A stretch of 64,000 nucleotides of DNA from an uncultured Gammaproteobacteria bacterium (lineage in GTDB: Bacteria; Patescibacteriota; Patescibacteriia; Magasanikbacterales; JBBTQS01): NCBI GenBank assembly GCA_965230935.1, contig OZ246400.1:173705-237704 (forward strand), in the 5' to 3' direction. Shown here one piece after another: positions 13,305-49,031 of the stretch (position 1 is the first letter of the stretch; each line of letters opens with the position of its first letter). The notes beneath the pieces were generated by a model, which did not search any database, was not told where the DNA came from, and saw only the letters and a program-made list of their open reading frames with translations. Both the position numbers and the translations under genes were made by a program.

Positions 13305-14228
13305 TCAGGCGAACACCGAGGCGCCGCGGAACTGACGCATGACCCCACCTTTGAGGAAGGACAGATCACGCGACAAACGCAGTAGGTGCGCCAACTGCCG
13401 CTCAGTCTTGGTGCTCATCTTCTTGTGGTGTCGCTCCCAGAGCTCGGGCTGGGTGGCCGGATCAGGCACCTGGTAGCGCTGATCCTCGTGAGCCGGCAAC
13501 ACCGGAGCGATGCATTCGCCAAAGTGTTCGACCAAGGCCGCCAAAGGGAACACCTCCTCCACGCCCATGAGGTGGTAGTGAACCTCCTCGTCCTTGACCG
13601 GCGAGTAGCCGATCACCGCGGTATGCGCACGTTTGTACTCGTCCTTGGGCATGCCGGCCAGGTGCGGGGGGAACCCGCCCATGTCCAGCAGCGTCGGGTT
13701 GTGCCAGATGGCCATGGTGTTGGCAATGCGCCCCTCGAGAATCGACTCGGTGAGCTCGTTGATCGCCAGACCGGTAACCATGGCACCCTGCTCGAGCGCT
13801 GCCCACATGGCGTCGAAGTTCTCCTGCGTCAGGTACGGTTGAGCTTCTGTAGACGCGATCATGGAGAACTCACACCCATGCTGCAGCTGGATCCGCACTC
13901 CCTGATTGAGGATCGCGCAGTACAGGTCACCATAGGTGACGATGTGAACGGCCACATCAGCGACTCCGCTTTGCTTCATGGCATCGCACAGCGCCGCGTG
14001 TGTCTCGCCGCAGTCACTCTTGGCGTACCCATGTGCAGCCCAGACCAGCACGTCGACTCGCTTAAGGCGACTCAGCTGGTTGGCAAGGGTAAGCTGGTTG
14101 GCAGCACGGATCATCTCTACGACCTGTGCACACCGCTTCGGGACATCTTCTGCCTTCGTGGCAAAAGTGCGTAGGACAAGTCCTACATTGCGCACGCGCA
14201 TATTGCGCGGCTTGACCGAATTGGTCAT
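13305..14228 (-). CDS. hypothetical protein, high-GC cassette gene D
   Basis: 307-aa ORF with GGAGG SD 9 nt before ATG 14228. Body is strongly GC-rich with GC-rich codons. No domain recognised. Confidence 0.75.
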   Translation of the reverse strand: MTNSVKPRNMRVRNVGLVLRTFATKAEDVPKRCAQVVEMIRAANQLTLANQLSRLKRVDVLVWAAHGYAKSDCGETHAALCDAMKQSGVADVAVHIVTYGDLYCAILNQGVRIQLQHGCEFSMIASTEAQPYLTQENFDAMWAALEQGAMVTGLAINELTESILEGRIANTMAIWHNPTLLDMGGFPPHLAGMPKDEYKRAHTAVIGYSPVKDEEVHYHLMGVEEVFPLAALVEHFGECIAPVLPAHEDQRYQVPDPATQPELWERHHKKMSTKTERQLAHLLRLSRDLSFLKGGVMRQFRGASVFA

Positions 14229-16146: not shown

Positions 16147-17410
16147 TGCCGGTGGCTACTCGTTTGCCATTCCAGAGTGCTCCTTCAGTCCACGGACTAT
16201 TGAGATAATCCCCACAGAGCCAAACATTGCGTTGTCCTTGCTCGTGAGTCAAAAATTCATGTGCATTGGTCAGCAATTCTTGGTTAAATTTTGGCATGGC
16301 ATGTGTCCAGCGCTGTAGATCATGTGGAGTGAGATCATCTTTACTTACCCAAGGGCACACTTTTGGAAATTCTTCTAGTACCGCTTTCCAAATTTCATCA
16401 TCAGATTTGGTGAGCATCTCTTGAGCATACCCATCATGGAGCCACGTGCATAACAGTTGTTTGCCGTTGCTACGTAAGTCATCACCTTTCATCACCTCAT
16501 TAGAGATACCGGAGAATTTTGTATTTTGAACGTATGGAATCCACGTAATTGAGGTTTTGGGCAAACTATCTGCTGCGACCTGAAACGCAACACTTACTGA
16601 GCTTGCATATTCAGTTTGCTCAAGTAGTTGTTGCTGGATTGGTGTTTTCTTTTTAAGGATTTGATTGCTTATCGGAGCAGTGGTGGCGAGTACCACAGTA
16701 TCGTATTGCTCTGCATCACGCTCAGTCTGAACAGTCCACATATCACCTTGTAAGGTGATTGAATGTACTGGCGTATTGGTTCGCACATCAAGATGTTTAG
16801 CAAGTGCTTCTGGTAAAACACTCATTCCTCCAGCGATACGATGGAGGTCCCACGCTGTCTTGTCTTTTTTAACTGATTGCATCACTGCGACAAAAGCTGC
16901 GGCACTTGCTTCAGTTGCCCGATGGAATTGATATGCAGCAGTAAATGGATCAACTATATAATCTGCTATTTCCTGATTCAGATGCGTGATCGCATAGTCG
17001 TACGCATTATCAGTATTGTACTCCATTGCCGTTTCAAGATCTCGAAAATCAGCATCTTCACTCATTTTGCGATAGGTATTTGCTAAAACAAGGTTTGATT
17101 TAAGAGAAAGTGTTTTGTGTACTGGTTTGATAGAACCATTTTTAAAAATTCCATAGGAGCAAAAATCCATTGGCATCCAGTCCAGATTAAGTTCATCAAC
17201 ATACTCCAACATATTGGTGTAATTGGGAATCAGGTGGGTAGCACCAATATCAAAAATAAGCCCATCTTTTTCGCGCGAACGCATGCGTCCGCCAACTGTG
17301 GAATCAGCTTCAAACACTGTGACGTCTTGGCCGGCCTTTTTAAGTTCATATGCGCAAACGAGTCCGGCAATACCTGCGCCTATAATTGCAATGCGAGGAG
17401 TTATTTTCAT
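16127..17410 (-). CDS. FAD-dependent amine oxidase / protoporphyrinogen-oxidase-like protein
   Basis: RIAIIGAGIAGLVCAYELKKAGQDVTVFEADSTVGGR Rossmann motif. Convergent with, and overlapping, the previous gene by 20 nt. Confidence 0.8.
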   Translation of the reverse strand: MKITPRIAIIGAGIAGLVCAYELKKAGQDVTVFEADSTVGGRMRSREKDGLIFDIGATHLIPNYTNMLEYVDELNLDWMPMDFCSYGIFKNGSIKPVHKTLSLKSNLVLANTYRKMSEDADFRDLETAMEYNTDNAYDYAITHLNQEIADYIVDPFTAAYQFHRATEASAAAFVAVMQSVKKDKTAWDLHRIAGGMSVLPEALAKHLDVRTNTPVHSITLQGDMWTVQTERDAEQYDTVVLATTAPISNQILKKKTPIQQQLLEQTEYASSVSVAFQVAADSLPKTSITWIPYVQNTKFSGISNEVMKGDDLRSNGKQLLCTWLHDGYAQEMLTKSDDEIWKAVLEEFPKVCPWVSKDDLTPHDLQRWTHAMPKFNQELLTNAHEFLTHEQGQRNVWLCGDYLNSPWTEGALWNGKRVATGIIESLS

Positions 17411-17450
17411 ACGTAATTGGTTGTGCAGATCATACCACGCTCACCATCTC

Positions 17451-17479
17451 TTGACGAGGTTATGTAAGTTTTATACACT
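17451..17479 (+). promoter_or_regulatory. sigma70-like promoter for gene A (TTGACG-17-TACACT)
   Basis: cTTGACGaggttatgtaagttttaTACACTg, followed by a leader hairpin and SD. Confidence 0.6.
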
Positions 17480-17508
17480 GCAATCTCCCACTCATCAACA
17501 ATGGGAGA

Positions 17509-18576
17509 TTGGAGGTCGCTTTGAGCACACCTGAGCCTGCGGGCAAACCTGCGGTCCGGATTGTCCAGGCCGTGGACCAACCGAACATCAGCAAAGCGAT
17601 CCACGCATTGCTGTTGTTCTTCGAGGAGCGTAACTGGGTCGACAACGACGCCATGATCCTGGAGCTCGGTCGTGCGCTGCACGAGGGTCATCAGTGTTGG
17701 GCACCGGTGTACGATCGGGACGCGGTCGGGACGCGGCTCATCTACGTACTGCCGTTCGACGGAGCGCAAGGACAGCGTCGCAGCGCCACGCGCTGCGTCT
17801 GGGTGTCCACCGCACGAGCGGATCTGATGGTCGAGCACATGATCGAACTTACCACCGGGCCATACGGTCGTGGTCGTAAGGCGCCGTCGGAGGGCATGTT
17901 CATCCAGGACACCGCAGCAACCGATCACCTCAACGAGTGTATCGGTCGCAAGATCGGTCGTCCGTGGGAGGTCGCTGACATTGCGTATACCGCGTCGCAG
18001 ACTTTGGCCGCGTGGTGGGCGGAGCAGCACCCGGTTCCGGCGACGCGCCGACCGGGACGCCGCGAGCGACTCAGTGAAGAGTTGTTGGGACACGTCAGGG
18101 AAGCACTGCGTTCGTCACAGCAGTTCGCCGTGGCCCCACCGCGTGGGTCGAGTGGCATGGGTTTTTACGTCCTGCCGATCGACCAGTGGACGCTCCAGCG
18201 CTGCATCGGGATAACGCTCAACGGCCACGCTGCCGAGGATTTGTCCCGGGATCTCGCCGGTCGGATTCGTTTGCACCTTGGCGACCGTTGGGAGCTGGGT
18301 GGCGACGAGGGTCCGGTGGAGGCCGAGTCCGATGTCATGAGCGTGAGTTCGGACGAGATCGAGTTCGAGCTCGAGTTCGACGACGATGCGGATGACGACG
18401 CGGACGACGAGAACGTCGCAGAGGCCGTGGTAGTTTCGCAGGTTGTCTCCGGTGACGAGCCGACGCAGGAGGCCACGCCGAGTGCCGGCACTGCTCCCAC
18501 TGACGAGCAGATGTCCACCCCAGCTGAGGACGGCAAAGGGCGCTCCGAGGGCAACCCTCCGGTTGGCCCGGCGTAA
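17509..18576 (+). CDS. hypothetical protein with acidic C-terminal tail, high-GC cassette gene A
   Basis: 355-aa ORF. Likely real start is TTG 17521, 5 nt after GGAGG (17511-17515). GC-rich codons. C-terminal EFELEFDDDADDDADDE low-complexity region. No domain recognised. Confidence 0.75.
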   Translation: MEVALSTPEPAGKPAVRIVQAVDQPNISKAIHALLLFFEERNWVDNDAMILELGRALHEGHQCWAPVYDRDAVGTRLIYVLPFDGAQGQRRSATRCVWVSTARADLMVEHMIELTTGPYGRGRKAPSEGMFIQDTAATDHLNECIGRKIGRPWEVADIAYTASQTLAAWWAEQHPVPATRRPGRRERLSEELLGHVREALRSSQQFAVAPPRGSSGMGFYVLPIDQWTLQRCIGITLNGHAAEDLSRDLAGRIRLHLGDRWELGGDEGPVEAESDVMSVSSDEIEFELEFDDDADDDADDENVAEAVVVSQVVSGDEPTQEATPSAGTAPTDEQMSTPAEDGKGRSEGNPPVGPA

Positions 18577-18608
18577 CTTTAGCCATCACACAACACACAC
18601 AACATGAA

Positions 18609-18637
18609 GAACGCGCAAACAAGCGCGCTCTTTGTAT
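18609..18637 (+). terminator. hairpin terminator after gene A
   Basis: gaacgcgc-aaacaa-gcgcgctc stem followed by tttgtattct. Confidence 0.65.
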
Positions 18638-18710
18638 TCTGGACAAAAGTAATTTGTTATAGTATGTATAAGATACCTGCATAAGAGATAGTGCAGGAAG
18701 AGGAGATCAG

Positions 18711-19478
18711 ATGTCACATGACGAATCGGCAGCGCCCCCGCAAGTGCCGATTGAGGAGGCCATTGTTGGGTTTTGCGCCCACATTGGATTGGTCGCCCGG
18801 AGTTCGTTTGGCGAGGAGTTGGTTGCTGCGGTGTGCCGAAAGGCCGTCTGCGCGATCGACATACAACCAGACTGGGATCAACGGGCAGTCTTTCGCGTAC
18901 CAGCAAAGCACGACCGTGTCTCGGGCGTGTTCGCAGTGATCTTGCTCGACGACGCGCTGAGCGAGTCGCTGACCAATGACTTCAATGAGCTTCTGCTGGG
19001 CTATGGCGGCTCAGGAGAAGGAGATGTTGATCACTGGAGTCAGACGACCAAGCTCACCCGCGCGGTTCGTGGGCTCAAGAGCTGGTTCAAGGACAGAGGC
19101 ATCCGTCTGGAGGTTGGGGATATCAACAGCTTTGTCACCGCCTGGGAAACTGGTGAGGTGAGAGAGTGGTCGTTTGATCAAGGTCGTGGAGCACCGGTGA
19201 TTGCGTTCGTCGTGCGTCCGTACGATGCCCCCAGAGACGAACGACGAAACAGTGAAGTTTGCGTCGAGGTGCACTGGGGTGACAGGCTCAACCACGAGTT
19301 GACTGCTGGTCTGAACCAGATGATCGACGATGCGTTGGGCCCCGATCTTCACTGGGACGTTCGGCGAACCACGGATGAGGACGCGTCTACGTCTGCCCAT
19401 TTTGCTGCACAGGAGGTGGCAGCCATCGGGGGGCAACAGCGGGAGCAACCGCGCCGTCGCAGCGCTGTGGGCGAGTAA
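18711..19478 (+). CDS. hypothetical protein, high-GC cassette gene B
   Basis: 255-aa ORF. ATG preceded by GGAAGAGGAG SD. GC-rich codons. No domain recognised. Confidence 0.75.
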   Translation: MSHDESAAPPQVPIEEAIVGFCAHIGLVARSSFGEELVAAVCRKAVCAIDIQPDWDQRAVFRVPAKHDRVSGVFAVILLDDALSESLTNDFNELLLGYGGSGEGDVDHWSQTTKLTRAVRGLKSWFKDRGIRLEVGDINSFVTAWETGEVREWSFDQGRGAPVIAFVVRPYDAPRDERRNSEVCVEVHWGDRLNHELTAGLNQMIDDALGPDLHWDVRRTTDEDASTSAHFAAQEVAAIGGQQREQPRRRSAVGE

Positions 19479-19502
19479 CTCAACACAACACACAACACAG
19501 GG

Positions 19503-19529
19503 CCTCCGCTACAACTTAGTGGAGGTTTT
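19503..19529 (+). terminator. hairpin terminator after gene B
   Basis: cctccgcta-caact-tagtggagg 9-bp stem followed by TTTT. Confidence 0.7.
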
Positions 19530-19537
19530 GTAATATC

Positions 19538-19566
19538 TTGACAGGAAAGCTGTCGCATAGTATAGT
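19538..19566 (+). promoter_or_regulatory. consensus sigma70 promoter for gene C (TTGACA-17-TATAGT)
   Basis: cTTGACAggaaagctgtcgcatagTATAGTc. Confidence 0.7.
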
Positions 19567-19590
19567 CTCTTCTCTCCTCATTGCATTGCT

Positions 19591-20238
19591 TTGATTAACT
19601 ACCGGGGAGGGAAGGGGGCTAACACCTTGAGTGAAGATTGGCGCGGCTTTGTCGCGGCACGTGAGGAAGATCGCGTTGCTGCGCTTGGTGCCGCAATGTC
19701 TCATCTGATGCAGCGAGTGGGGTTCATTGACCCCAAATCGCCTGGGGACAAGAAGTCTCGGAAGGCGCTTGCACAGATGGGGTCGGCATTGGCTGCCATG
19801 ATCAGTGCCGCCCGTTCCGGTGACGTGTACATCACGGTGCTGCAGGGCGAGCAGACAGGTTCCGACGTGCTGATCCAGGTGTTGCCATTCGCCCCGACTA
19901 TGATCGGCGATGGCGACGATGCCGCGTTGGATCTGAGCATGCCGCGTCGCACTCGCGAGCGGCTGGTCATGGTCTACACTCTCTCGCCGAACGGCACTGA
20001 CCGTGGCTTCGAGTTCTCTCTGGATCTCACCACCAGCTTCAACACAGGTGTGCAGCAGGTCATCGACGTGCAGCACACATCACTCCTGCAACGAGGTTTG
20101 AGGCCCAGGGAGCGATCCGAGTCCCCCCCGGCACCAAATGGCTGGTTGACCTGGGAGGACTGGCTCGAGGAGTCGGCACGACGCGCCGAGCAGTCGGGGA
20201 CTGGAGGCGAGGAGGTCGAGGAGTCCTCAGGCTCCTGA
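19591..20238 (+). CDS. hypothetical protein, high-GC cassette gene C
   Basis: ORF from TTG 19591. More likely start is TTG 19627, 8 nt after the GGGGAGGGAAGGGGG SD-like run. GC-rich codons. No domain recognised. Confidence 0.7.
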   Translation: MINYRGGKGANTLSEDWRGFVAAREEDRVAALGAAMSHLMQRVGFIDPKSPGDKKSRKALAQMGSALAAMISAARSGDVYITVLQGEQTGSDVLIQVLPFAPTMIGDGDDAALDLSMPRRTRERLVMVYTLSPNGTDRGFEFSLDLTTSFNTGVQQVIDVQHTSLLQRGLRPRERSESPPAPNGWLTWEDWLEESARRAEQSGTGGEEVEESSGS

Positions 20239-20272
20239 TCACTCACAACAACAACCACACCACAACGGCAGG

Positions 20273-40696: not shown

Positions 40697-41125
40697 ATGG
40701 AAAAATCTCGACTGCAATTTACTATTGTCACTCCTGAGTCAACAATCTTTGACGGATCTGTTGGTCAAGTTTCAATTATGACTGCAGCCGGAGAAATTAC
40801 CGTGTTGCCACATCACATTCCATTGCTTGGAATTTTGACTCCGGGTGAGCTTAAGATTCAAGATGATAGTGGTGAGGAATTACACATCGCAGTAGCAGGT
40901 GGTTTTGTAGAAGTGGCAGCTGATAATCATGTGACGGTTTTGGCTGATGCGGCAGAGCGCGCTGATGAGATTGACTTGGAGCGTGCGCAACAAGCACAAG
41001 AGCGTGCTCGTATTGCGCTTGAGAAAAAACAATTTGCTAATGATATCGAATTTGCCGCGCTGCAAGCCGCACTTGAGAGATCGCTTAGTCGGATTAAAGT
41101 TGCACGGAAACGCCGAAGGAAATAG
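40697..41125 (+). CDS. atpC: F0F1 ATP synthase subunit epsilon
   Basis: N-terminal beta-sandwich and C-terminal helical hairpin. Position after atpD. Confidence 0.9.
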   Translation: MEKSRLQFTIVTPESTIFDGSVGQVSIMTAAGEITVLPHHIPLLGILTPGELKIQDDSGEELHIAVAGGFVEVAADNHVTVLADAAERADEIDLERAQQAQERARIALEKKQFANDIEFAALQAALERSLSRIKVARKRRRK

Positions 41126-41164
41126 GACAACGTAGTGATGCAAAAATTACTTTAGAATAAGAGA

Positions 41165-41205
41165 AAAAAAGACGAATCTGTGTTATAGATTCGTCTTTAA
41201 TTTTA
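41165..41205 (+). terminator. rho-independent terminator of atp operon
   Basis: aaagacgaatc-tgtgttata-gattcgtcttt perfect 11-bp stem followed by a T-run. Confidence 0.8.
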
Positions 41206-41213
41206 GCTAAATA

Positions 41214-41242
41214 TTGACAAATATTCAATTTTAATGTATTGT
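41214..41242 (+). promoter_or_regulatory. sigma70-like promoter for Cys-rich lipoprotein gene (TTGACA-17-TATTGT)
   Basis: aTTGACAaatattcaattttaatgTATTGTg. Followed by a GC-rich structured leader (ggccacagtggcc palindrome; gccatg...catggc stem). Confidence 0.55.
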
Positions 41243-41337
41243 GCTACCTTATAGGAGGGCCACAGTGGCCAGCCATGCGGCGATGATTCCATGGCATGAA
41301 GCTGTGGGTTCTTTGACAATTAGAGGGGGTTCGAAAG

Positions 41338-43989
41338 ATGAATCGAATAGCTATTACCCTTGCCTTTGCCGCCCTGATCGCAGGGTGTGCAGACGCATCG
41401 GTAGATCCAGGAACGGTCGAGTGTTTCGGCGAGGCCTGTGCCAAGCCGGACGCCGATACGACCGGTGGTGGGGAGGTAGTCCCTCCGGATACCACACCGG
41501 ATGTCGGCGACACCGGTGATGACAGTGATGATCCGGATGTGCTCGAGACCGACGACGGTGCTGAGGTGGACGACATCAATGACGCCGATACGGCCGTCGA
41601 GGATGTGGACATCGACGTTCCGGACGAGGGTGATGATGGCGACACGCCGGATGTGCCCGAGACCAACGACGGTGCTGAGGTGGACGACACCGAGGACACC
41701 GACGAGACGACGGACACGGACGAGACCGATACGCCTGTTGATCCCTGCGATGGGGTCGACTGCACGGACGACAACCCGTGCACCATCGACGAGACGTGCG
41801 TGGATGGCGAGTGTGTCAGCTCGCCGGTCGTCTGCAACGATGACAATCCGTGTACGGACGATGCGTGCGTCGTGATTGAAGGTGGGTGCGTGTATACCCC
41901 GAACGCAGTGCTGTGTGAGGATGGCGACCCGTGTACGCTGGAGGACGCCTGTGTGGACGGTTCCTGTGCGCCTGGCGCACCGAAGATCTGCCAGGATGCC
42001 AACTTCTGCACCGTGGATGCGTGCGACCCGGTTTCCGGGGAGTGTGCCTTCGTGGTCGTGCCCGAGCCCTGCGATGATGGGAACGAGTGTACGCAGGAGG
42101 AGGTGTGTCAGCAGGACGCCACGTGTGGCAACGGGGCGGAAGTGGAGTGCGCAGACGAAGATCCGTGCACGAACGACAGCTGCAATCCGGACTCGGGTTG
42201 TGTGTTTGCTCAGAAGGAGTGCGACGACGAAGATCCGTGCACCGTTGACTTGTGCGAGACCGAGTCTGGCGAGTGTACCTTCGTGATCGTGCCGGAGTGC
42301 AAATGCGCTCCTGAGCAGTGTACGGACGACAACCCGTGCACGTCGGACGTGTGCAACCCGCTCGACGGGTCCTGCTCCTTCCCGTTCAACACGGAGCCGT
42401 GTGACGATGGCGACCCGTGTACGTTGGAGGACGCCTGTGCGGACGGTTCCTGTGCGCCTGGCGCGCCCAAGTCGTGTATCAGTGAGAACATCTGCCTGAG
42501 CGCGAGCTGCAATCCGGAGACGGGGAGCTGTGAGCTGAGTGAGAACACCGCGCCGTGTGACGATGGCGATGCGTGCACCCAGGAAGATGTGTGTAACGAA
42601 GGTTCGTGCGCTGGCGTGCTGATGGTGTGTACGGACGACAACCCGTGCACCGAAGGCGACACGTGCAATGGCGGCACTTGCGCCGCCGGGGAAGCCAAGG
42701 TCTGCGAAGACGGTAACCCCTGCACGGTTGGTGCGTGCGACCCGGATTCCGGGGAGTGCGCGTTTTCCCCGGACAACGGGGGAAGCTGCACGGACGACAA
42801 CCCGTGCACCAACGACGTCTGCCAGGACGGGGAGTGTGTGAGCGAGGCCAACAGCGCCTGCTGCACTGAAGACGCGCAGTGCGCTGACGAGCTGGCCTGT
42901 ACGCAGGACCAGTGCGTGGAGCAGTTGTGTAAGAACTTCGTCATTCCGGGCACCGGGCATTGCCTTATCGAGGAGGTGTGTATTCCGGAAGGGGTGGTCA
43001 ATTCGGCCAACGACTGTGAGGCTTGCACCTCGATGGTCAACCCCAACGGGTGGAGCCCGCTTGTGGATGGGAGCGATTGCGAAGATGGACAGGCGTGCAC
43101 CGAAGGCGACACGTGCAATGGCGGCACTTGCGCCGCCGGGGAAGCCAAGGTCTGCGAAGACGGTAACCCCTGCACGGTTGGTGCGTGCGACCCGGATTCC
43201 GGGGAGTGCGCGTTTTCCCCGGACAACGGGGGAAGCTGCACGGACGACAACCCGTGCACCAACGACGTCTGCCAGGACGGGGAGTGTGTGAGTACCACAG
43301 TCGCGTGCGACGACGGTCTCCCATGCACTCTGGATTCGTGTGACGAGGCGGGCGAGTGTCAGTACGAGCCCAAGACGTGTGACGACTCCAATCCGTGCAC
43401 CATCGATTCGTGCGAGCAGAGCACCGGCGATTGCGTAGGTGAGCTTGCTACGGTGAAGTTCCAGGACATCACCGCGGCCAAGTGCCTCACGCTTCCGCCG
43501 TTCATGCCATGGTTCGCGTTTGATGACTTCGATGACTCGGAGTCGCCCAATTCGAACATCTGGCACTGCGGTCACGACTGCCTGAACATCGACGCGGCCT
43601 GCCAGTCGCAAGTCGGTACGATCCGTCCCGGGTTTACGCACAACGGGGACCAGCACACCTTTACCATCGACCCGCAAGCAGCGTTTCCGGAACTTGACGG
43701 CATGACCATCTCGGCCGCCTTCACGTTCCGCAGGCAAGGGGTAACGCCCAACGACCTGACGCCGCCTGAGGTTGTGGTGAAGCAGACCATCGACGGAATC
43801 GAAACGGTGCTTGCCTCGCAGTTCCTGGGCAAATCACCGAACAACAATTTCGATTTCCTGGTCGAGTTCCTGGTTGGTGATGGTTTGGTCACGGTGTACT
43901 ACACGCCCAACGACTTCATCCCCGACTCGGAACGCACGCTGCACATCATGCTCGACTCGAACATCGAGCTGCAGCCTGTGTGTCCCTGA
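41338..43989 (+). CDS. large Cys-rich tandem-repeat lipoprotein (CxDDNPCTxDxC repeats, slime-mold/Dicty-CTDC-like)
   Basis: Lipoprotein signal (MNRIAITLAFAALIAGC), acidic D/E/T-rich linker, then roughly 20-25 repeats of about 22-25 aa with 4 Cys each (e.g. CTDDNPCTIDETCVDGECV). C-terminal roughly 170-aa Cys-poor domain. GC-rich codons. High-GC cassette gene E. Confidence 0.85.
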   Translation: MNRIAITLAFAALIAGCADASVDPGTVECFGEACAKPDADTTGGGEVVPPDTTPDVGDTGDDSDDPDVLETDDGAEVDDINDADTAVEDVDIDVPDEGDDGDTPDVPETNDGAEVDDTEDTDETTDTDETDTPVDPCDGVDCTDDNPCTIDETCVDGECVSSPVVCNDDNPCTDDACVVIEGGCVYTPNAVLCEDGDPCTLEDACVDGSCAPGAPKICQDANFCTVDACDPVSGECAFVVVPEPCDDGNECTQEEVCQQDATCGNGAEVECADEDPCTNDSCNPDSGCVFAQKECDDEDPCTVDLCETESGECTFVIVPECKCAPEQCTDDNPCTSDVCNPLDGSCSFPFNTEPCDDGDPCTLEDACADGSCAPGAPKSCISENICLSASCNPETGSCELSENTAPCDDGDACTQEDVCNEGSCAGVLMVCTDDNPCTEGDTCNGGTCAAGEAKVCEDGNPCTVGACDPDSGECAFSPDNGGSCTDDNPCTNDVCQDGECVSEANSACCTEDAQCADELACTQDQCVEQLCKNFVIPGTGHCLIEEVCIPEGVVNSANDCEACTSMVNPNGWSPLVDGSDCEDGQACTEGDTCNGGTCAAGEAKVCEDGNPCTVGACDPDSGECAFSPDNGGSCTDDNPCTNDVCQDGECVSTTVACDDGLPCTLDSCDEAGECQYEPKTCDDSNPCTIDSCEQSTGDCVGELATVKFQDITAAKCLTLPPFMPWFAFDDFDDSESPNSNIWHCGHDCLNIDAACQSQVGTIRPGFTHNGDQHTFTIDPQAAFPELDGMTISAAFTFRRQGVTPNDLTPPEVVVKQTIDGIETVLASQFLGKSPNNNFDFLVEFLVGDGLVTVYYTPNDFIPDSERTLHIMLDSNIELQPVCP
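42644..42842 (+). repeat. 199-bp perfect direct repeat, copy 1 (inside Cys-rich lipoprotein gene)
   Basis: Identical base-for-base to 43094-43292. Encodes CTEGDTCNGGTCAAGEAKVCEDGNPCTVGACDPDSGECAFSPDNGGSCTDDNPCTNDVCQDGECVS. Confidence 0.95.
43094..43292 (+). repeat. 199-bp perfect direct repeat, copy 2
   Basis: Identical to 42644-42842. The 450-nt offset is exactly 150 codons, so recombination between copies would be in-frame. Confidence 0.95.
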
Positions 43990-44020
43990 CCCTCAAGACA
44001 ACAACAAACCTACAACAGTA

Positions 44021-44055
44021 AGAGCTCTCCTTTCCAGGAGGGCTCTTTCTATTTA
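44021..44055 (+). terminator. hairpin terminator after Cys-rich lipoprotein gene
   Basis: agagctctcc-tttcca-ggagggctct 10-bp stem followed by ttctatttatt. Confidence 0.7.
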
Positions 44056-44084
44056 TTGCGTTTTAACGCGTTTTCCTTCACAAT

Positions 44085-47039
44085 ATGGCCATGGATATTT
44101 TGGGATCACTTAATGCTCAACAAAAAGAAGCGGTACTCCATCGTGGAAGCCCGCTGATGATTGTTGCTGGCGCCGGAACCGGAAAAACAACGGTATTAAC
44201 ACGCCGTATTGCACATATTATTACGCACGATACCGTACCGCCGAAGAATATTATGGCAGTTACGTTTACCCAAAAAGCTGCGGCTGAATTAGTAACTCGC
44301 ATTGGAGAGTTTATTCCTGAGGCACCCTACGAAATGGTCGCTGGGACATTTCATGGTGTATGCGAGGGGATTTTGCGCGAGTACGGTCATGATATTGGAT
44401 TGCCAGTTGGGTTTACGGTACTTACTGAACACCAAGCGTGGATGTTGGTAAAACAACATCTGAGTGAATTTGATTTGCAGTATTATCGCCCGCGGGGGAA
44501 TCCAACACAATTTGTACAATCACTCCTTACACACTTTTCAAGATGTAAAGATGAACTTGTAACGTGGCAAGCATACATAGATTATGTCGAAGAACTTAGG
44601 CTCAATACCGATACTGCCACTGAACAATTCACTCAAGAGTATCAACGGTTATCAGAACTTGCTCATGCATATAAAACGTACGAAGAATTATTGTTGAAGA
44701 ATTCATATCTTGATTTTGGTTCGTTGTTACTCTATACCGTCGAGTTAATCCAAAATCGACCAAACATTCTTGAAAAACTTCAAGAAAAATTTGCTCATAT
44801 CATTGTTGATGAGTTTCAAGATACCAACTATGCACAGTATTCACTGTTACAAACCCTTTGTGATTCTTCAAAAAATAATCCACCAGAGATTACTGTGGTA
44901 GGGGATGACAATCAAAGTATTTATCGTTTTCGCGGAGCAACGATTGGGAACATTTTGCGGTTTACCGATGATTTCCCGAAAACAAAGCAGGTGGTACTTA
45001 TCCAAAATTACCGTTCTACTCAAGGAATTTTGGATCTTGCATACCAACTCATTAGCCATAACAATCCGCATACACTTGAATCCAGATTGAAAATTGACAA
45101 ACAACTTGTTGCACAACGTACCGGGACATCAGCGGTACAATACATCACGAGTACTGATGCCTACAGTGAGTGCATACGTATTGCACAGCACATTAATGTG
45201 GTGCATGACTCTGGAGCACCATGGAATAGCATCGGTATTCTTATCCGAGCGCATCATCATGCAGAAGAGTTTAAAAGCGTATTACCAAAGCAAGGAATCC
45301 CGATTGCTGTTCATGGTCCAGGAGGATTTTTTGAACACCCAATCGTGCTGTATTGTTTGGCTGTTCTAACCATTATTACCAACGCGCATGAATCCCAGGC
45401 GTTGTTTTCTGTTCTGGATTATCCACCATTTCGACTCCATCATGAAGACCGGATGGCATTGATACAGTTTGCAAAACGTAAAGGGATTTCGCTATATCAG
45501 GCATGTCAAAATCACCAGCAAGTCACTCTTTCAGATCAAGGTCACGCACAAATAGAAAAGCTGGCGAGTGATTTGCGGTTTGTCGCAGATCTACGAAGTC
45601 GAGTCGGGATATCTGAATGTATCATCCAATGGTTGGAACGGAGCGGCGCTATGCAATATTTTGCAAAGGCGCAAGAAGATGGTTCTATCGAGGAGCCTTT
45701 TGTCGCACTAGAGTCATTTTGTATTTACAGTAAAGAGTTCGAGCGACTTCACACTATTAAAAGTGTAGAAGCATTTCTGGCTTGGCACGATGATGTGTTG
45801 GCTTCAGGAGGATACGATCAACAGCAAGAAGTACAGCGACAGACTGATGCGGTTCAAATTATGACTGTTCATGGAGCCAAGGGGTTGGAATTTGATCATG
45901 TCATCTTGCCGCAATTGGTCCATTTACGTTTTCCGACACGTGCCCGACGCGAAAAAATTCCGATCCCTGAAGCAATCCGAATGCATAAAGAAAATGCAGC
46001 AAGTGAACATATTCTTGAAGAGCGTCGATTAGCATATGTGGCGATTACCAGAGCACGTGATTCACTTTTGCTTTCTCATGCAAGCAACTATGGTGGGAAG
46101 ACAACGCGCAAGCCATCGCAATTTATTACCGAGATGGGATTGGATGAACTCCCAGATACACAGACAATCTCAATAGTCTCATCTGAAGCTCCAACACCAC
46201 CTGCAGCTCGCAAACCAAAGGCTCATATCGTTGGACAACAGCGCACCCCAAAACGAATGTCATTCTCTCAATTGCAAACATATGTGCGTTGTCCGTTGCA
46301 GTACAAATATCGATATGTGCTGCGCGTTCCAACTGAAGGAAATCATGCCTTAAGTTTTGGTTCAACTATTCACAATACATTGCAGGCATGGATGGAGAAA
46401 CTCAAGATACTGCGAAGTGCGCAACAGCAAGGACTATTTGATACTCCGCAAAATACGAGTAGCGATGATGGCAGTGTGCCTGATGTGCAAGAGTTATTGA
46501 ATATCTATCATGAAAAATGGATTGATGATTGGTATCAAAATGAACAACAAAAAAAGGAGTATCAAGATCATGGTGTACAAATATTGAAAACATTTTACGA
46601 ACACCACCAACCTTTTCCACAACTTCCACAAGCGATTGAACAATCGTTTACCATTCCGATTGGAAATTGTACTTTTACCGGAAGAATTGATAGAATAGAT
46701 AAAAATGAGCAAGGGGTCACGATCATTGATTACAAGACCGGTGAGCCAAAAACAACATTACAAAAAATTGATAAGCAGCAATTGCACTTGTATCATCTTG
46801 CGCTTAAGCGTGACCCACGACTTGCATATCTTGGTCCGGTGAACTCACTTGAGTACTGGTATCTGAAAGATCATAGTATAGCAACCATCCCTGCTGACAC
46901 AGAGCTACTACTTGAATTTGAACAAGAGGTAATCACCGTTACTGACCAGATAGCTGCTCAAGAATTTGATCCCAAGCCAAACCCATTTACATGTCGCAGT
47001 TGCGACTTTAAAACCATTTGTCCGTATCGTAAATTGTAA
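44085..47039 (+). CDS. UvrD/PcrA-family helicase fused to a C-terminal PD-(D/E)XK (RecB/Cas4-like, 4-Cys) nuclease domain
   Basis: Helicase motif I (AGAGTGKTTVLTRRIA) and further UvrD-like motifs. C-terminus has a Cys cluster (FTCRSCDFKTICPYR) typical of Cas4/AddB-type nucleases. Confidence 0.85.
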   Translation: MAMDILGSLNAQQKEAVLHRGSPLMIVAGAGTGKTTVLTRRIAHIITHDTVPPKNIMAVTFTQKAAAELVTRIGEFIPEAPYEMVAGTFHGVCEGILREYGHDIGLPVGFTVLTEHQAWMLVKQHLSEFDLQYYRPRGNPTQFVQSLLTHFSRCKDELVTWQAYIDYVEELRLNTDTATEQFTQEYQRLSELAHAYKTYEELLLKNSYLDFGSLLLYTVELIQNRPNILEKLQEKFAHIIVDEFQDTNYAQYSLLQTLCDSSKNNPPEITVVGDDNQSIYRFRGATIGNILRFTDDFPKTKQVVLIQNYRSTQGILDLAYQLISHNNPHTLESRLKIDKQLVAQRTGTSAVQYITSTDAYSECIRIAQHINVVHDSGAPWNSIGILIRAHHHAEEFKSVLPKQGIPIAVHGPGGFFEHPIVLYCLAVLTIITNAHESQALFSVLDYPPFRLHHEDRMALIQFAKRKGISLYQACQNHQQVTLSDQGHAQIEKLASDLRFVADLRSRVGISECIIQWLERSGAMQYFAKAQEDGSIEEPFVALESFCIYSKEFERLHTIKSVEAFLAWHDDVLASGGYDQQQEVQRQTDAVQIMTVHGAKGLEFDHVILPQLVHLRFPTRARREKIPIPEAIRMHKENAASEHILEERRLAYVAITRARDSLLLSHASNYGGKTTRKPSQFITEMGLDELPDTQTISIVSSEAPTPPAARKPKAHIVGQQRTPKRMSFSQLQTYVRCPLQYKYRYVLRVPTEGNHALSFGSTIHNTLQAWMEKLKILRSAQQQGLFDTPQNTSSDDGSVPDVQELLNIYHEKWIDDWYQNEQQKKEYQDHGVQILKTFYEHHQPFPQLPQAIEQSFTIPIGNCTFTGRIDRIDKNEQGVTIIDYKTGEPKTTLQKIDKQQLHLYHLALKRDPRLAYLGPVNSLEYWYLKDHSIATIPADTELLLEFEQEVITVTDQIAAQEFDPKPNPFTCRSCDFKTICPYRKL

Positions 47040-47041
47040 TT

Positions 47042-47332
47042 ATGCAATCTCTTTCCGATGACCTGCACAAACGAGTTGCCAAAGCCGGCATCACCAAACA
47101 AGTTGAGGCTTCAGCTATTATTGAACAGGCAACCGAAGCGCTCAAGAAGGTGATGAAAGAACATGCATCCCATATTCGTCCACAATATGTTAAAAATGGC
47201 ACCCTTACCGTTACGTGCGATTCAGCGGCTATTGCACATCAACTTAAACTTCAGGAGCCTCAAATTTTAGCGGAAATTCACAACAATAGCGGTTCAACAA
47301 CCACAGTTGAGCGTATTCGCTATCTATTGTAG
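47042..47332 (+). CDS. DUF721 (DciA-like) protein
   Basis: NGTLTVTCDSAAIAHQLKLQEPQILAEIHN matches the DUF721 core (G.L.V...S.AWA.EL..L.P.IL..LN). Confidence 0.7.
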   Translation: MQSLSDDLHKRVAKAGITKQVEASAIIEQATEALKKVMKEHASHIRPQYVKNGTLTVTCDSAAIAHQLKLQEPQILAEIHNNSGSTTTVERIRYLL

Positions 47333-47388
47333 AGGATCTTGCGCAAAACCAACATCTGCAGTATCCTGCCAAGTAGGCAGGTGTTTGT

Positions 47389-47793
47389 TTGCCAATATTG
47401 GCATCTATGACTTTACGACAATATTTGCTTGTGATGAGCTTTGCTACATTGCTATGCTTGATAGCATTGGGGTTTGTGATTTTTATGATTGACCCCTTTG
47501 AATCAAATCTCCTCGGCGTGGTGCTCTTTTATGCAAGCTTCTTTCTCTCAGTGCTGGGTGTCTTTTCATTGGTAGGGTTTGGTATTGAGAGCCTAGTGTT
47601 TAAACGAGAAACCATTATTTTTCGGAAGGTCAAAAAAAGTTTTCGCCAAGGGGTGTTGTTTGCCACATTACTTTGTGTTGTGTTGGCGTTAGCACACGCC
47701 CAAATGTTGTTTTGGTGGACGATTTTACTCTTGGCTATCGGCTTGAGCTGCATTGAATTTGTGTGGTCTCGAGAAAAACGTATTCGATCGTAA
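47389..47793 (+). CDS. hypothetical membrane protein
   Basis: 134 aa with four hydrophobic helices. Confidence 0.55.
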   Translation: MPILASMTLRQYLLVMSFATLLCLIALGFVIFMIDPFESNLLGVVLFYASFFLSVLGVFSLVGFGIESLVFKRETIIFRKVKKSFRQGVLFATLLCVVLALAHAQMLFWWTILLLAIGLSCIEFVWSREKRIRS

Positions 47794-47795
47794 CT

Positions 47796-49031
47796 ATGAT
47801 ATTCAAACAATCAAAACTCTTTACCAAGACAAGTAAAGAAAATCCAAAAGACGAAGTAAGTATTAATGCACAGCTCCTTTCTCGAGCGGGATACATTGAT
47901 AAGGTCATGGCCGGAGTGTACTCATATCTCCCGCTTGGTTTGCGCGTACTTACTAAGATCGCAAAAATTGTGCGATCTGAAATGGATGGCATTGGCGCGC
48001 AAGAGCTGTTGTTGCCAGCGCTTCATCCAAAAGAATATTATCTCGCAACCAAGCGCTGGGAAGCGATTGATGTATTGTTTAAACTCGAAGGCGCAGGGAG
48101 TAAAGAACTTGCGCTTGGATCAACGCACGAAGAGATTGTCACACCACTGTTGCAAAAATTCGTACATTCGTATAAGGATCTACCAACAGCGGTATATCAA
48201 ATTCAAACAAAGTTCCGAAATGAACCACGGGCAAAATCAGGGCTACTTCGTGGTCGCGAATTTTTGATGAAAGATTTGTACAGTTTTCATAGAGATCAAG
48301 CTGATTTTGAACAGTATTATACAACAGTAACTGAAGCGTATCACCGTGTATTTGCCCAGTGTGGACTTGATGCAAAGTACACAGCTGCAGACGGAGGGGT
48401 GTTTAGTAAGTTCTCTCATGAATTTCAAGTGTTTACTCCCCATGGTGAGGATATGGTGTTTAGCTGTGGCGCGTGTGATGTGCATACCAACAAAGAATTA
48501 GTGAGTGACAATACATGTGAGCAGTGTGGGGGAGAGCGTGAGGAAAATAAAGCAATTGAGGTGGGAAATATTTTCCCATTGAAGACAAAGTTTTCTACTG
48601 CATTTGATTTTACCTATCCTGATGAGAAAAATACCCAACAAGAGATTCTTATGGGGTGCTATGGCATCGGAGTTAGTCGACTGATGGGAGCTATTGTTGA
48701 GGTGCATCATGACGACGCTGGTATTATTTGGCCGAAGGAAGTGGCGCCATATGATGTGCATGTGATTGCCCTGGGTCAGGACGAGGCGGTCATGAAAAAA
48801 GCGCAAGAGATAGCGATTACCCTTTCAGAACATGGAAAAGATGTGCTACTTGATGATCGTGATGTGCGTGCAGGAGTGAAGTTTGCTGATAGTGATTTGA
48901 TTGGCCTACCAGTCCGTGTTGTGGTAAGTTCGGGATTGCTTGAGAACAATCAAGTTGAAGTCAAAGAGCGAATCGCTGTTGAGGCTACCACCTTGGATGA
49001 AGCACAACTGTATAGCCAGTGGGGCTTTTAA
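47796..49031 (+). CDS. proS: prolyl-tRNA synthetase (short form, no insertion editing domain)
   Basis: Class-II motifs (FRNE, GRE...DLYSF, GCYGIGVSRL) and a C-terminal anticodon-binding domain. ATG 47796 follows the upstream stop. Confidence 0.92.
   Translation: MIFKQSKLFTKTSKENPKDEVSINAQLLSRAGYIDKVMAGVYSYLPLGLRVLTKIAKIVRSEMDGIGAQELLLPALHPKEYYLATKRWEAIDVLFKLEGAGSKELALGSTHEEIVTPLLQKFVHSYKDLPTAVYQIQTKFRNEPRAKSGLLRGREFLMKDLYSFHRDQADFEQYYTTVTEAYHRVFAQCGLDAKYTAADGGVFSKFSHEFQVFTPHGEDMVFSCGACDVHTNKELVSDNTCEQCGGEREENKAIEVGNIFPLKTKFSTAFDFTYPDEKNTQQEILMGCYGIGVSRLMGAIVEVHHDDAGIIWPKEVAPYDVHVIALGQDEAVMKKAQEIAITLSEHGKDVLLDDRDVRAGVKFADSDLIGLPVRVVVSSGLLENNQVEVKERIAVEATTLDEAQLYSQWGF

Follow-up and report, generated by a model that had tools for sequence, protein, structure and literature searches.

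A perfect 199-bp repeat in a high-GC cysteine-rich lipoprotein gene of a Patescibacteria-like genome, probably left by recent segment copying

INTRODUCTION

Large exported cysteine-rich proteins, thought to act in attachment, have been described in "Candidatus Peribacter riflensis" of the candidate phyla radiation (CPR). These proteins are weakly similar to the cysteine-rich repeat proteins of Myxococcus, and the differences between Peribacteria strains concentrate in the large cysteine-rich extracellular proteins, where indels of tens of base pairs are found (PMC4736985). Here we describe a gene of this general kind in a 64,000-nt stretch of DNA from an uncultured bacterium (GenBank assembly GCA_965230935.1, contig OZ246400.1, positions 173,705 to 237,704 of the forward strand). 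This whole stretch is called the window, and all positions are numbered from its first base. The gene encodes a putative surface lipoprotein of 883 amino acids with Dicty_CTDC repeats, and it carries two perfect copies of a 199-nt tract, here termed copy 1 and copy 2. We consider it likely that the pair arose by a recent nonreciprocal copying of one segment within a horizontally acquired, modular, adhesin-like gene and that the copying left a passive recombinational instability behind.

As in Peribacter, a small CPR genome is combined with a large cysteine-rich, putatively exported protein. Unlike the Peribacter indels, the change seen here is a perfect 199-nt copy with the potential for a 450-nt block change. 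Furthermore, the gene forms a compositional island (GC content at third codon positions [GC3] of 0.76 versus 0.33 to 0.40), a feature that was not reported for Peribacter. Members of the Dicty_CTDC family are known from the extracellular matrix and spore coat proteins of Dictyostelium and from bacterial proteins annotated as cysteine-rich repeat or slime mold repeat proteins. The repeat is listed among the families without a solved structure (PMC8078820). Its bacterial members belong mostly to high-GC, Myxococcota-like metagenome-assembled genomes (MAGs), whereas the host in this case is a small low-GC genome. The protein described here shares with the family its cysteine-rich units of 24 to 27 amino acids (C.D...CT.D.C). 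However, it differs from its homologues in having a unique spacer module (U), an orphan C-terminal domain, and a perfect repeat of 66 amino acids, compared with a maximum of 28.

Two further systems bear on the repeat itself. In Escherichia coli, direct repeats of 101 to 787 bp recombine by RecA-independent template switching or slippage or by RecA-dependent unequal exchange, and direct repeats shorter than 200 bp within a few kilobases of each other give rise to RecA-independent deletions, crossovers, and expansions (PMC7145654). A perfect pair of about 200 bp whose members are 251 bp apart is within the range of size and proximity at which deletions and expansions are common in E. coli. In a Gracilibacterium, a repeat-bearing gene for a hypervariable surface protein fragments the assembly; its repeat is shared with a co-occurring, possibly host, lineage, and length variation at that locus is expected but untestable by short reads (PMC6851277). 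The Gracilibacterium repeat is a microsatellite-like array of 9 nt (PTD) with synonymous hypervariation, while the gene described here combines units of 72 to 81 nt with one long perfect pair.

RESULTS

The 199-nt repeat pair

The two copies (Table 1) were matched exactly over 199 nt by a repeat search, by direct string comparison, and by self-BLAST (100% identity, E 4e-102), which confirms the identity reported in a preliminary description of this DNA. Their starts are separated by 450 nt, or 150 codons, and both lie in the same open reading frame (ORF), as that description had also proposed. They occupy amino acids 436/437 to 502 and 586/587 to 652, and their products share 66 identical residues. 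The bases bordering the copies are unlike by string comparison (C/G at the left and C/T at the right), and flanks of 30 to 90 nt compared at the 450-nt offset have an in-register identity of 0.15 to 0.40, which is the random level for this composition. Because 199 identical positions stand between flanks at the random level, the tract has sharp edges and a chance origin is ruled out. With zero differences, synonymous sites included, the duplication is very recent, and elsewhere the array has diverged, the closest other pairs within the gene being only 89%, 82%, and 79% identical; on both points the preliminary description was right. Outside the gene, the 64-kb window holds no repeat of 40 nt or longer.

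The pair is laid out as A(199)-U(251)-A(199), so that the repeated part makes up 199 of the 450 nt. Around it, the array alternates type I units (C.DG..CT..D.C..G.C) with type II units (CDD.NPCT.D.C.P..G.C), an alternation that recurs in the family consensus from a 47-sequence alignment as C.DG..CT..D.C..G.C.G and CDD.NPCT.D.C.P..GC. The 66 residues encoded by A correspond to 2.75 units, namely, a type I body, a type II unit, and a CTDDNPCTNDVCQDGECVS unit. In the spacer U, one "CC-type" cysteine unit is joined by about 44 residues that lack a family counterpart and by the six-residue head of the unit that follows. The preliminary description had counted the 150-amino-acid block as about six repeats; the block is instead made of the 2.75 CTDC units of A and a mostly non-CTDC U of 83 amino acids, each contributing 11 of its 22 cysteines. 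No Pfam family matched U, BLAST searches for it in the homologues gave only weak, cysteine-driven matches, and a regular expression for its pattern had no match in 166 homologues.

An AlphaFold2 (AF2) model of amino acids 400 to 700, built with the 47-sequence alignment, had a mean predicted local distance difference test score (pLDDT) of 80. The score was 90 to 96 across both A copies and the units and below 50 for amino acids 526 to 569 of U. A Foldseek comparison of the A-U-A model with the PDB gave no match at E ≤ 0.001. The best neighbors there were the cysteine-rich heavy chains of the Entamoeba histolytica Gal/GalNAc lectin, which were below significance (E 2e-3) with a low template modeling score.

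Table 1. Features of the lipoprotein gene and of the independent contigs that reach into it (window numbering)
Feature	Position	Strand	Basis or remark
atpC terminator	41168-41198		Upstream of lipoprotein gene
Promoter-like TTGACA-17-TATTGT	41214-41242	+	Consensus match only; between atpC terminator and lipoprotein gene
Gene for 883-aa cysteine-rich putative surface lipoprotein with Dicty_CTDC repeats	41338-43989	+	ORF, Pfam, cysteine count, GC3
Signal peptide with lipobox MNRIAITLAFAALIAG, then Cys17	41338-41388	+	By-eye reading of translation
Acidic D/E/T-rich linker, aa 36-135	41443-41742	+	Translation
Older 74-nt pair in acidic linker, 82%, offset 114	41515-41588 and 41629-41702		
About 22 cysteine-rich CTDC units, aa 136 to ~695	41743-43419	+	Unit parsing, 47-sequence alignment, AF2
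Older pair, member 1, 89% over 84 nt, offset 486	41902-41985	+	Repeat search, self-BLAST
Older pair, member 2, partner of 41902-41985	42388-42471	+	Repeat search, self-BLAST
Copy 1 of 199-nt perfect repeat, aa 437-502	42644-42842	+	Repeat search, self-BLAST, unit parsing, string comparison
Spacer U, aa 503-585 (83 aa), 11 Cys	42843-43093	+	Between copies
Copy 2 of 199-nt perfect repeat, aa 587-652, canonical context at both ends	43094-43292	+	Repeat search, unit parsing, string comparison
Orphan C-terminal domain, ~189 aa (aa ~696-883), beta-rich, GC3 0.79	43420-43986	+	Null homology searches
Terminator-like hairpin just 3' of lipoprotein gene	44020-44047	+	
Contigs L001 and L003	End at 42032		
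Contig L002	Ends at 41733		
Contig L004	Ends at 41468		
Contig L005	Starts at 43317		
Contig L006 (MEGAHIT, ERR2281801)	42756-48743		100% identity to window

Direction of copying

Next, we compared the contexts in which the two copies stand. Copy 2 is preceded by a canonical type I head (CEDGQA, followed by CTEGDTC), and it continues from ...ECVS into TTVAC, resembling the first unit of the array (unit 142, ...ECVSSPVVC). In self-BLAST, the homology to this first unit (41760 to 41840) runs past copy 2 on the right as far as position 43313, while it ends at the edge of copy 1. Copy 1 is preceded by a type II head that is fused to a type I body (CTDDNP, followed by CTEGDTC) and thus begins with a head/body chimera. 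Its left edge falls in the recurrent CCGTGCAC "P-C-T" motif, next to an exact repeat of 24 nt (42627 to 42650, identical to 42318 to 42341). Because copy 2 has a canonical context and the first unit of copy 1 is chimeric, the source was probably copy 2 and copy 1 was derived from it, an inference that we make with moderate confidence.

Older copies in the gene and in its relatives

The gene holds other, older internal copies. The members of the 84-nt pair are separated by 3 synonymous and 5 nonsynonymous codon differences, and a third older copy found by self-BLAST covers 68 nt at 79% identity, at offsets of 714 and 1164. The older pairs differ at both synonymous and nonsynonymous positions, and the array units are otherwise 60 to 89% alike. 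In self-BLAST, every intragenic repeat pair had an offset divisible by 3. The in-frame offset of the 199-nt pair, to which the preliminary description had given weight, is therefore uninformative, since any repeat that survives in coding sequence must be in frame.

In CTDC genes from 57 metagenomic loci, the longest exact direct repeats were 99, 69, 58, 50, 48, and 47 nt, the 99-nt repeat being located at a contig end. Their offsets were in frame at 417 to 768 nt, except for the 58-nt repeat, whose offset was 21 nt. These comparisons place the 199-nt pair as the youngest member of a graded series of in-frame copies and as the extreme of a continuum, with the caveat that perfect repeats of greater length cannot be represented in short-read assemblies.

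The lipoprotein and its gene

The protein matches PF00526 (Dicty_CTDC) with 121.5 bits, above the gathering cutoff of 27 (E 1.1e-35), in 11 stretches and thus over several tandem units; none of the NCBIfam models matched it. It contains 97 cysteines (11%), 1 in the lipobox and 96 elsewhere. As a criterion for the lipobox, we used the pattern [LVI][ASTVI][GAS]C at the end of a signal peptide, and MNRIAITLAFAALIAG followed by Cys17 fits this pattern, as matched by eye on the translation only. The cysteine count, the lipobox reading, and the Pfam match agree with the earlier view that the gene encodes a cysteine-rich lipoprotein.

The C-terminal domain had no HMMER match among 1.84 billion representative proteins, no match in a word-based search of 5.8 billion proteins, and no Pfam family. 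A single-sequence AF2 prediction of this domain was beta-rich but had a pLDDT of 39 and did not provide a usable model. Given the predicted terminators on both sides and the promoter-like site, the gene appears to be its own monocistronic transcription unit.

Long antisense frames are open in this high-GC gene at 41320-43737 (-), with 805 amino acids, and at 42210-43328 (-), with 372 amino acids. The antisense strand was called as a gene on the contig fragments L005 and L006 and is a likely source of spurious database "proteins." Exact look-ups of three antisense ORF products in the protein collection found none of them.

Foreign composition and genomic context

The gene has a GC content of 0.62 and a GC3 of 0.76, whereas GC3 is 0.33 to 0.40 in the flanking ATP synthase, helicase, mreB, and PBP2 genes, and the genome as a whole has 43% GC. 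Codon preferences are reversed relative to the neighbors (for example, TGC:TGT of 62:35 versus 3:16). The host genome is Patescibacteria-like by its sequence, and identity between its AtpD and those of Magasanikbacteria and other CPR MAGs does not exceed 77%. In distant relatives, atpC is followed by a UvrD/PD-(D/E)XK helicase gene with nothing or other genes in between, and none of them has a CTDC gene in that interval. A helicase scan of the genome contigs gave no match, and since AtpD found distant relatives only, the source genome is not one of the GTDB representatives.

More than 5,000 homologues of the 883-amino-acid protein were found at E ≤ 1e-10. The top ones are labeled as Deltaproteobacteria or Myxococcales MAGs, and the best identity, 39 to 43%, is confined to the repeat part. 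Searches with the whole protein, with amino acids 400 to 700, and with the C-terminal domain returned no close relative, no fragment from the same population, and no donor. A scan of metagenome contigs with the U-A-C-terminal sequence yielded repeat-level relatives only, at 52% identity or less, and the CTDC loci come mostly from genomes of 0.56 to 0.75 GC without a GC contrast. From the GC3 contrast, the reversed codon preferences, the gene order of relatives, and the high GC of the usual hosts, horizontal acquisition of the gene from a high-GC lineage is well supported, and the composition suggests that it was recent.

In distant relatives, the interval between atpC and the helicase gene (41125 to 44090 in the window) is variable: L011 has 0.47 kb without a gene, L007 has three unrelated genes in 2.8 kb, and L022 has other genes in 4.6 kb. 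The window also has two more high-GC islands among housekeeping genes, at 13305-14228 (-) and 17400-20240 (GC, 0.59 to 0.64; GC3, 0.65 to 0.76). No Pfam family matched their ORFs, which look like additional foreign orphan genes; two of the encoded proteins are recorded on the 931-kb NCBI contig that carries the window's other proteins.

A high-GC Dicty_CTDC lipoprotein gene with an acidic linker was also seen in an unrelated low-GC lineage (L110, 4800 to 6770; L101, 1 to 1600; L137, 1398 to 2630; and L136). There the gene has a GC content of 0.57 and a GC3 of 0.70 between flanks of 0.38 to 0.42 and 0.30 to 0.36, respectively, and its neighbors are O-antigen-ligase/tetratricopeptide repeat and glycosyltransferase genes. 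L101 and L110 are 99.2% identical downstream of a block boundary; upstream of it, the L101 block differs and is 97% identical to L137. This divergence reflects either a variant in the number of a 140-amino-acid block or a strain chimera.

Support from independent assemblies

We determined how far the locus is reproduced in the public MEGAHIT (k127) and Logan assemblies of ERR2281800, ERR2281801, and ERR2281805 (PRJEB17505). It was recovered at 99.9 to 100% identity, and every contig breaks inside the lipoprotein gene. Both junctions between the gene and the genome are crossed by independent contigs among L001 to L006, and thus the island is not a chimeric join. L006 matches the window at 100% identity over the last 87 nt of copy 1, all of U, the entire copy 2, and the sequence to its right. 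Because U is bounded in this contig by A sequence on both sides, collapse of a single copy is excluded. In ERR2281801, two assemblers stop at the same base, 42032, without an exact repeat there. Gapped coverage of the high-GC island or heterogeneity in the population may lie behind the contig breaks.

An assembly artifact had been raised in the preliminary description as an alternative to a true duplication. In such an artifact of assembly or curation, an assembler, gap filler, or polisher would have made similar but nonidentical stretches identical or set the loop count wrongly. It would be helped by a 199-nt repeat that exceeds the k-mer of 127 in public assemblies that all break inside the gene, by the inability of a de Bruijn graph to give the copy number of a loop, and by the stretch from 42033 to 42755, which has no independent support. 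Moreover, exact look-up did not find the 883-amino-acid product in a 15-billion-protein collection that holds the window's other proteins, including the neighboring ones, from an NCBI contig of 931,061 bp. Against this stand the 100% match of L006 across the A tail, U, the full second A, and the flank, the preservation of frame and unit structure at the join, and the other array units, which at 60 to 89% similarity are too distant to have been homogenized by polishing. Given that both U junctions and the entire copy 2 are confirmed independently, while the left 112 nt of copy 1 are not covered, we regard an artifact as unlikely; it is largely, not wholly, excluded.

DISCUSSION

How the pair may have arisen

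The account that we favor, at a level of confidence short of firm, is recent nonreciprocal copying within the gene. A stretch of 66 codons, comprising 2.75 cysteine-rich units, would have been copied across a distance of 450 nt, most likely from the downstream to the upstream position, either by a gene conversion-like replacement of an older unit or by an insertion through two microhomology-guided template switches. The chimeric join of copy 1 would have been made within the recurrent CCGTGCAC motif. The event would be the youngest of an ongoing series of segment copyings that may shape the gene and its relatives. As a by-product, it would have left perfect direct repeats of 199 bp separated by 251 bp. 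RecA-dependent unequal exchange or RecA-independent template switching between these repeats could then delete a 450-nt block to give a protein of 733 amino acids, with the loss of U and 22 cysteines. Less often, the same processes could add another block to give a protein of 1,033 amino acids.

Several observations weigh against this account. The flanks of the two copies lack homology, being at random identity, whereas classical gene conversion normally needs flanking homology; this speaks against classical conversion and leaves both replacement and template-switch insertion as routes. A pure insertion of 199 nt would break the frame, so that one or more of the identical positions must be an edge base that matches by chance. 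Furthermore, exact internal repeats among the 166 homologous proteins do not exceed 28 amino acids, making the 66-amino-acid repeat an outlier, although short-read assemblies are biased against longer perfect repeats, which limits this comparison of repeat lengths. Finally, the upstream join of copy 1 lies, with its left 112 nt, in the stretch that is found in no retrieved independent contig, and the searches returned no length variant.

Length variation

Removing one copy and the spacer in silico leaves an intact ORF of 733 amino acids. The preliminary description had predicted that recombination would remove or add exactly 150 amino acids and keep the ORF, and the deletion product bears this out. 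It had also suggested phase variation. In-frame loss or gain of a block is possible, but reversible switching is not, because U is unique and the single copy remaining after a deletion could not regenerate it. Only a change between 883 and 1,033 amino acids would be reversible. Perfect direct repeats of 199 bp with 251 bp between them are prone to recombination in model bacteria; here they form a single pair and not a tract tuned to slippage. All three forms, of 733, 883, and 1,033 amino acids, were absent from the 15-billion-protein collection, and no high-identity fragments were present in the databases searched.

It is unlikely that the pair is a dedicated device for length or phase variation, in which ongoing conversion keeps the repeats alike and the population yields all three forms. 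The surface location indicated by the lipobox and the cysteine-rich stalk would suit such a device, as would an in-frame block with an even number of cysteines (22) and a repeat length and spacing that favor frequent deletion and expansion (PMC7145654). Variation of large cysteine-rich proteins between CPR strains (PMC4736985) points the same way, and so does the strain-level difference at a block boundary between L101 and L110 in the other CTDC lipoprotein lineage, but L101 is possibly a strain chimera. In three samples the contigs break up within the gene, as heterogeneity would cause; however, these breaks are explained equally well if a 62% GC island is poorly covered within a genome of 43% GC. 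A device is further disfavored by the failure to find any variant form, by the permanent loss of U upon deletion, which makes an ON-to-OFF change irreversible, by an in-frame offset that is common to every repeat pair in the gene, and by the lack of a recombinase, invertase, or other switch component adjoining the gene. The best reading of the sequence is that the instability of this putative modular, stalk-like adhesin would be passive and not that of a dedicated reversible switch.

A bolder proposal, which we hold to be quite improbable, is that the repeats are a built-in excision and amplification cassette. A small, episymbiont-like Patescibacteria genome would have gained the gene from a high-GC, possibly host, lineage, and the U-bearing block of 150 amino acids would be shed or multiplied as a recurrent strategy. 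If this were true, stalk length and ligand display would change by a disulfide-balanced block of 22 cysteines, and the second low-GC lineage (L101, L110, and L137) would make the strategy recurrent.

Readings contradicted by the repeat itself

Tandem duplication of a 450-nt unit through unequal crossing-over has in its favor a 450-nt period that is in frame and within a repeat array, but it should have produced 450 identical positions. Only 199 were found, with identity over the remaining 251 at the random level; for 251 nt to diverge fully while 199 nt stay perfect is impossible. The mismatch between the length of the identity and the period refutes this reading, and we give it almost no weight.

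Diversity-generating retroelements (DGRs) are common in CPR bacteria, and a repeat of about 200 nt with a surface protein as the target in a CPR-like genome fits their general picture, but a template/variable repeat pair is rejected as having next to no probability, since there are zero mismatches and hence no adenine-specific differences, both copies are inside one ORF with neither at its 3' end, and no reverse transcriptase was present in the gene calls that span -10.6 kb to +13 kb (window 30.7 to 57 kb) or the other ORFs scanned, a scan that left out a few ORFs at 58 to 64 kb.

Biological meaning

Taken alone, the repeat is the kind of trace that concerted evolution ordinarily leaves in a modular surface protein, and it carries the practical warning that a 199-nt repeat breaks short-read assemblies. 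More notable than the repeat is the presence, in a Patescibacteria-like genome of 0.93 Mb, of a compositionally foreign Dicty_CTDC lipoprotein gene with a C-terminal domain that has no detectable relative. So is its context, with further high-GC orphan islands in the window and a similar pattern in a second low-GC lineage. If adhesin-like genes of this kind stem from host lineages and vary by blocks, they would be candidate factors for the attachment and specificity of CPR episymbionts.

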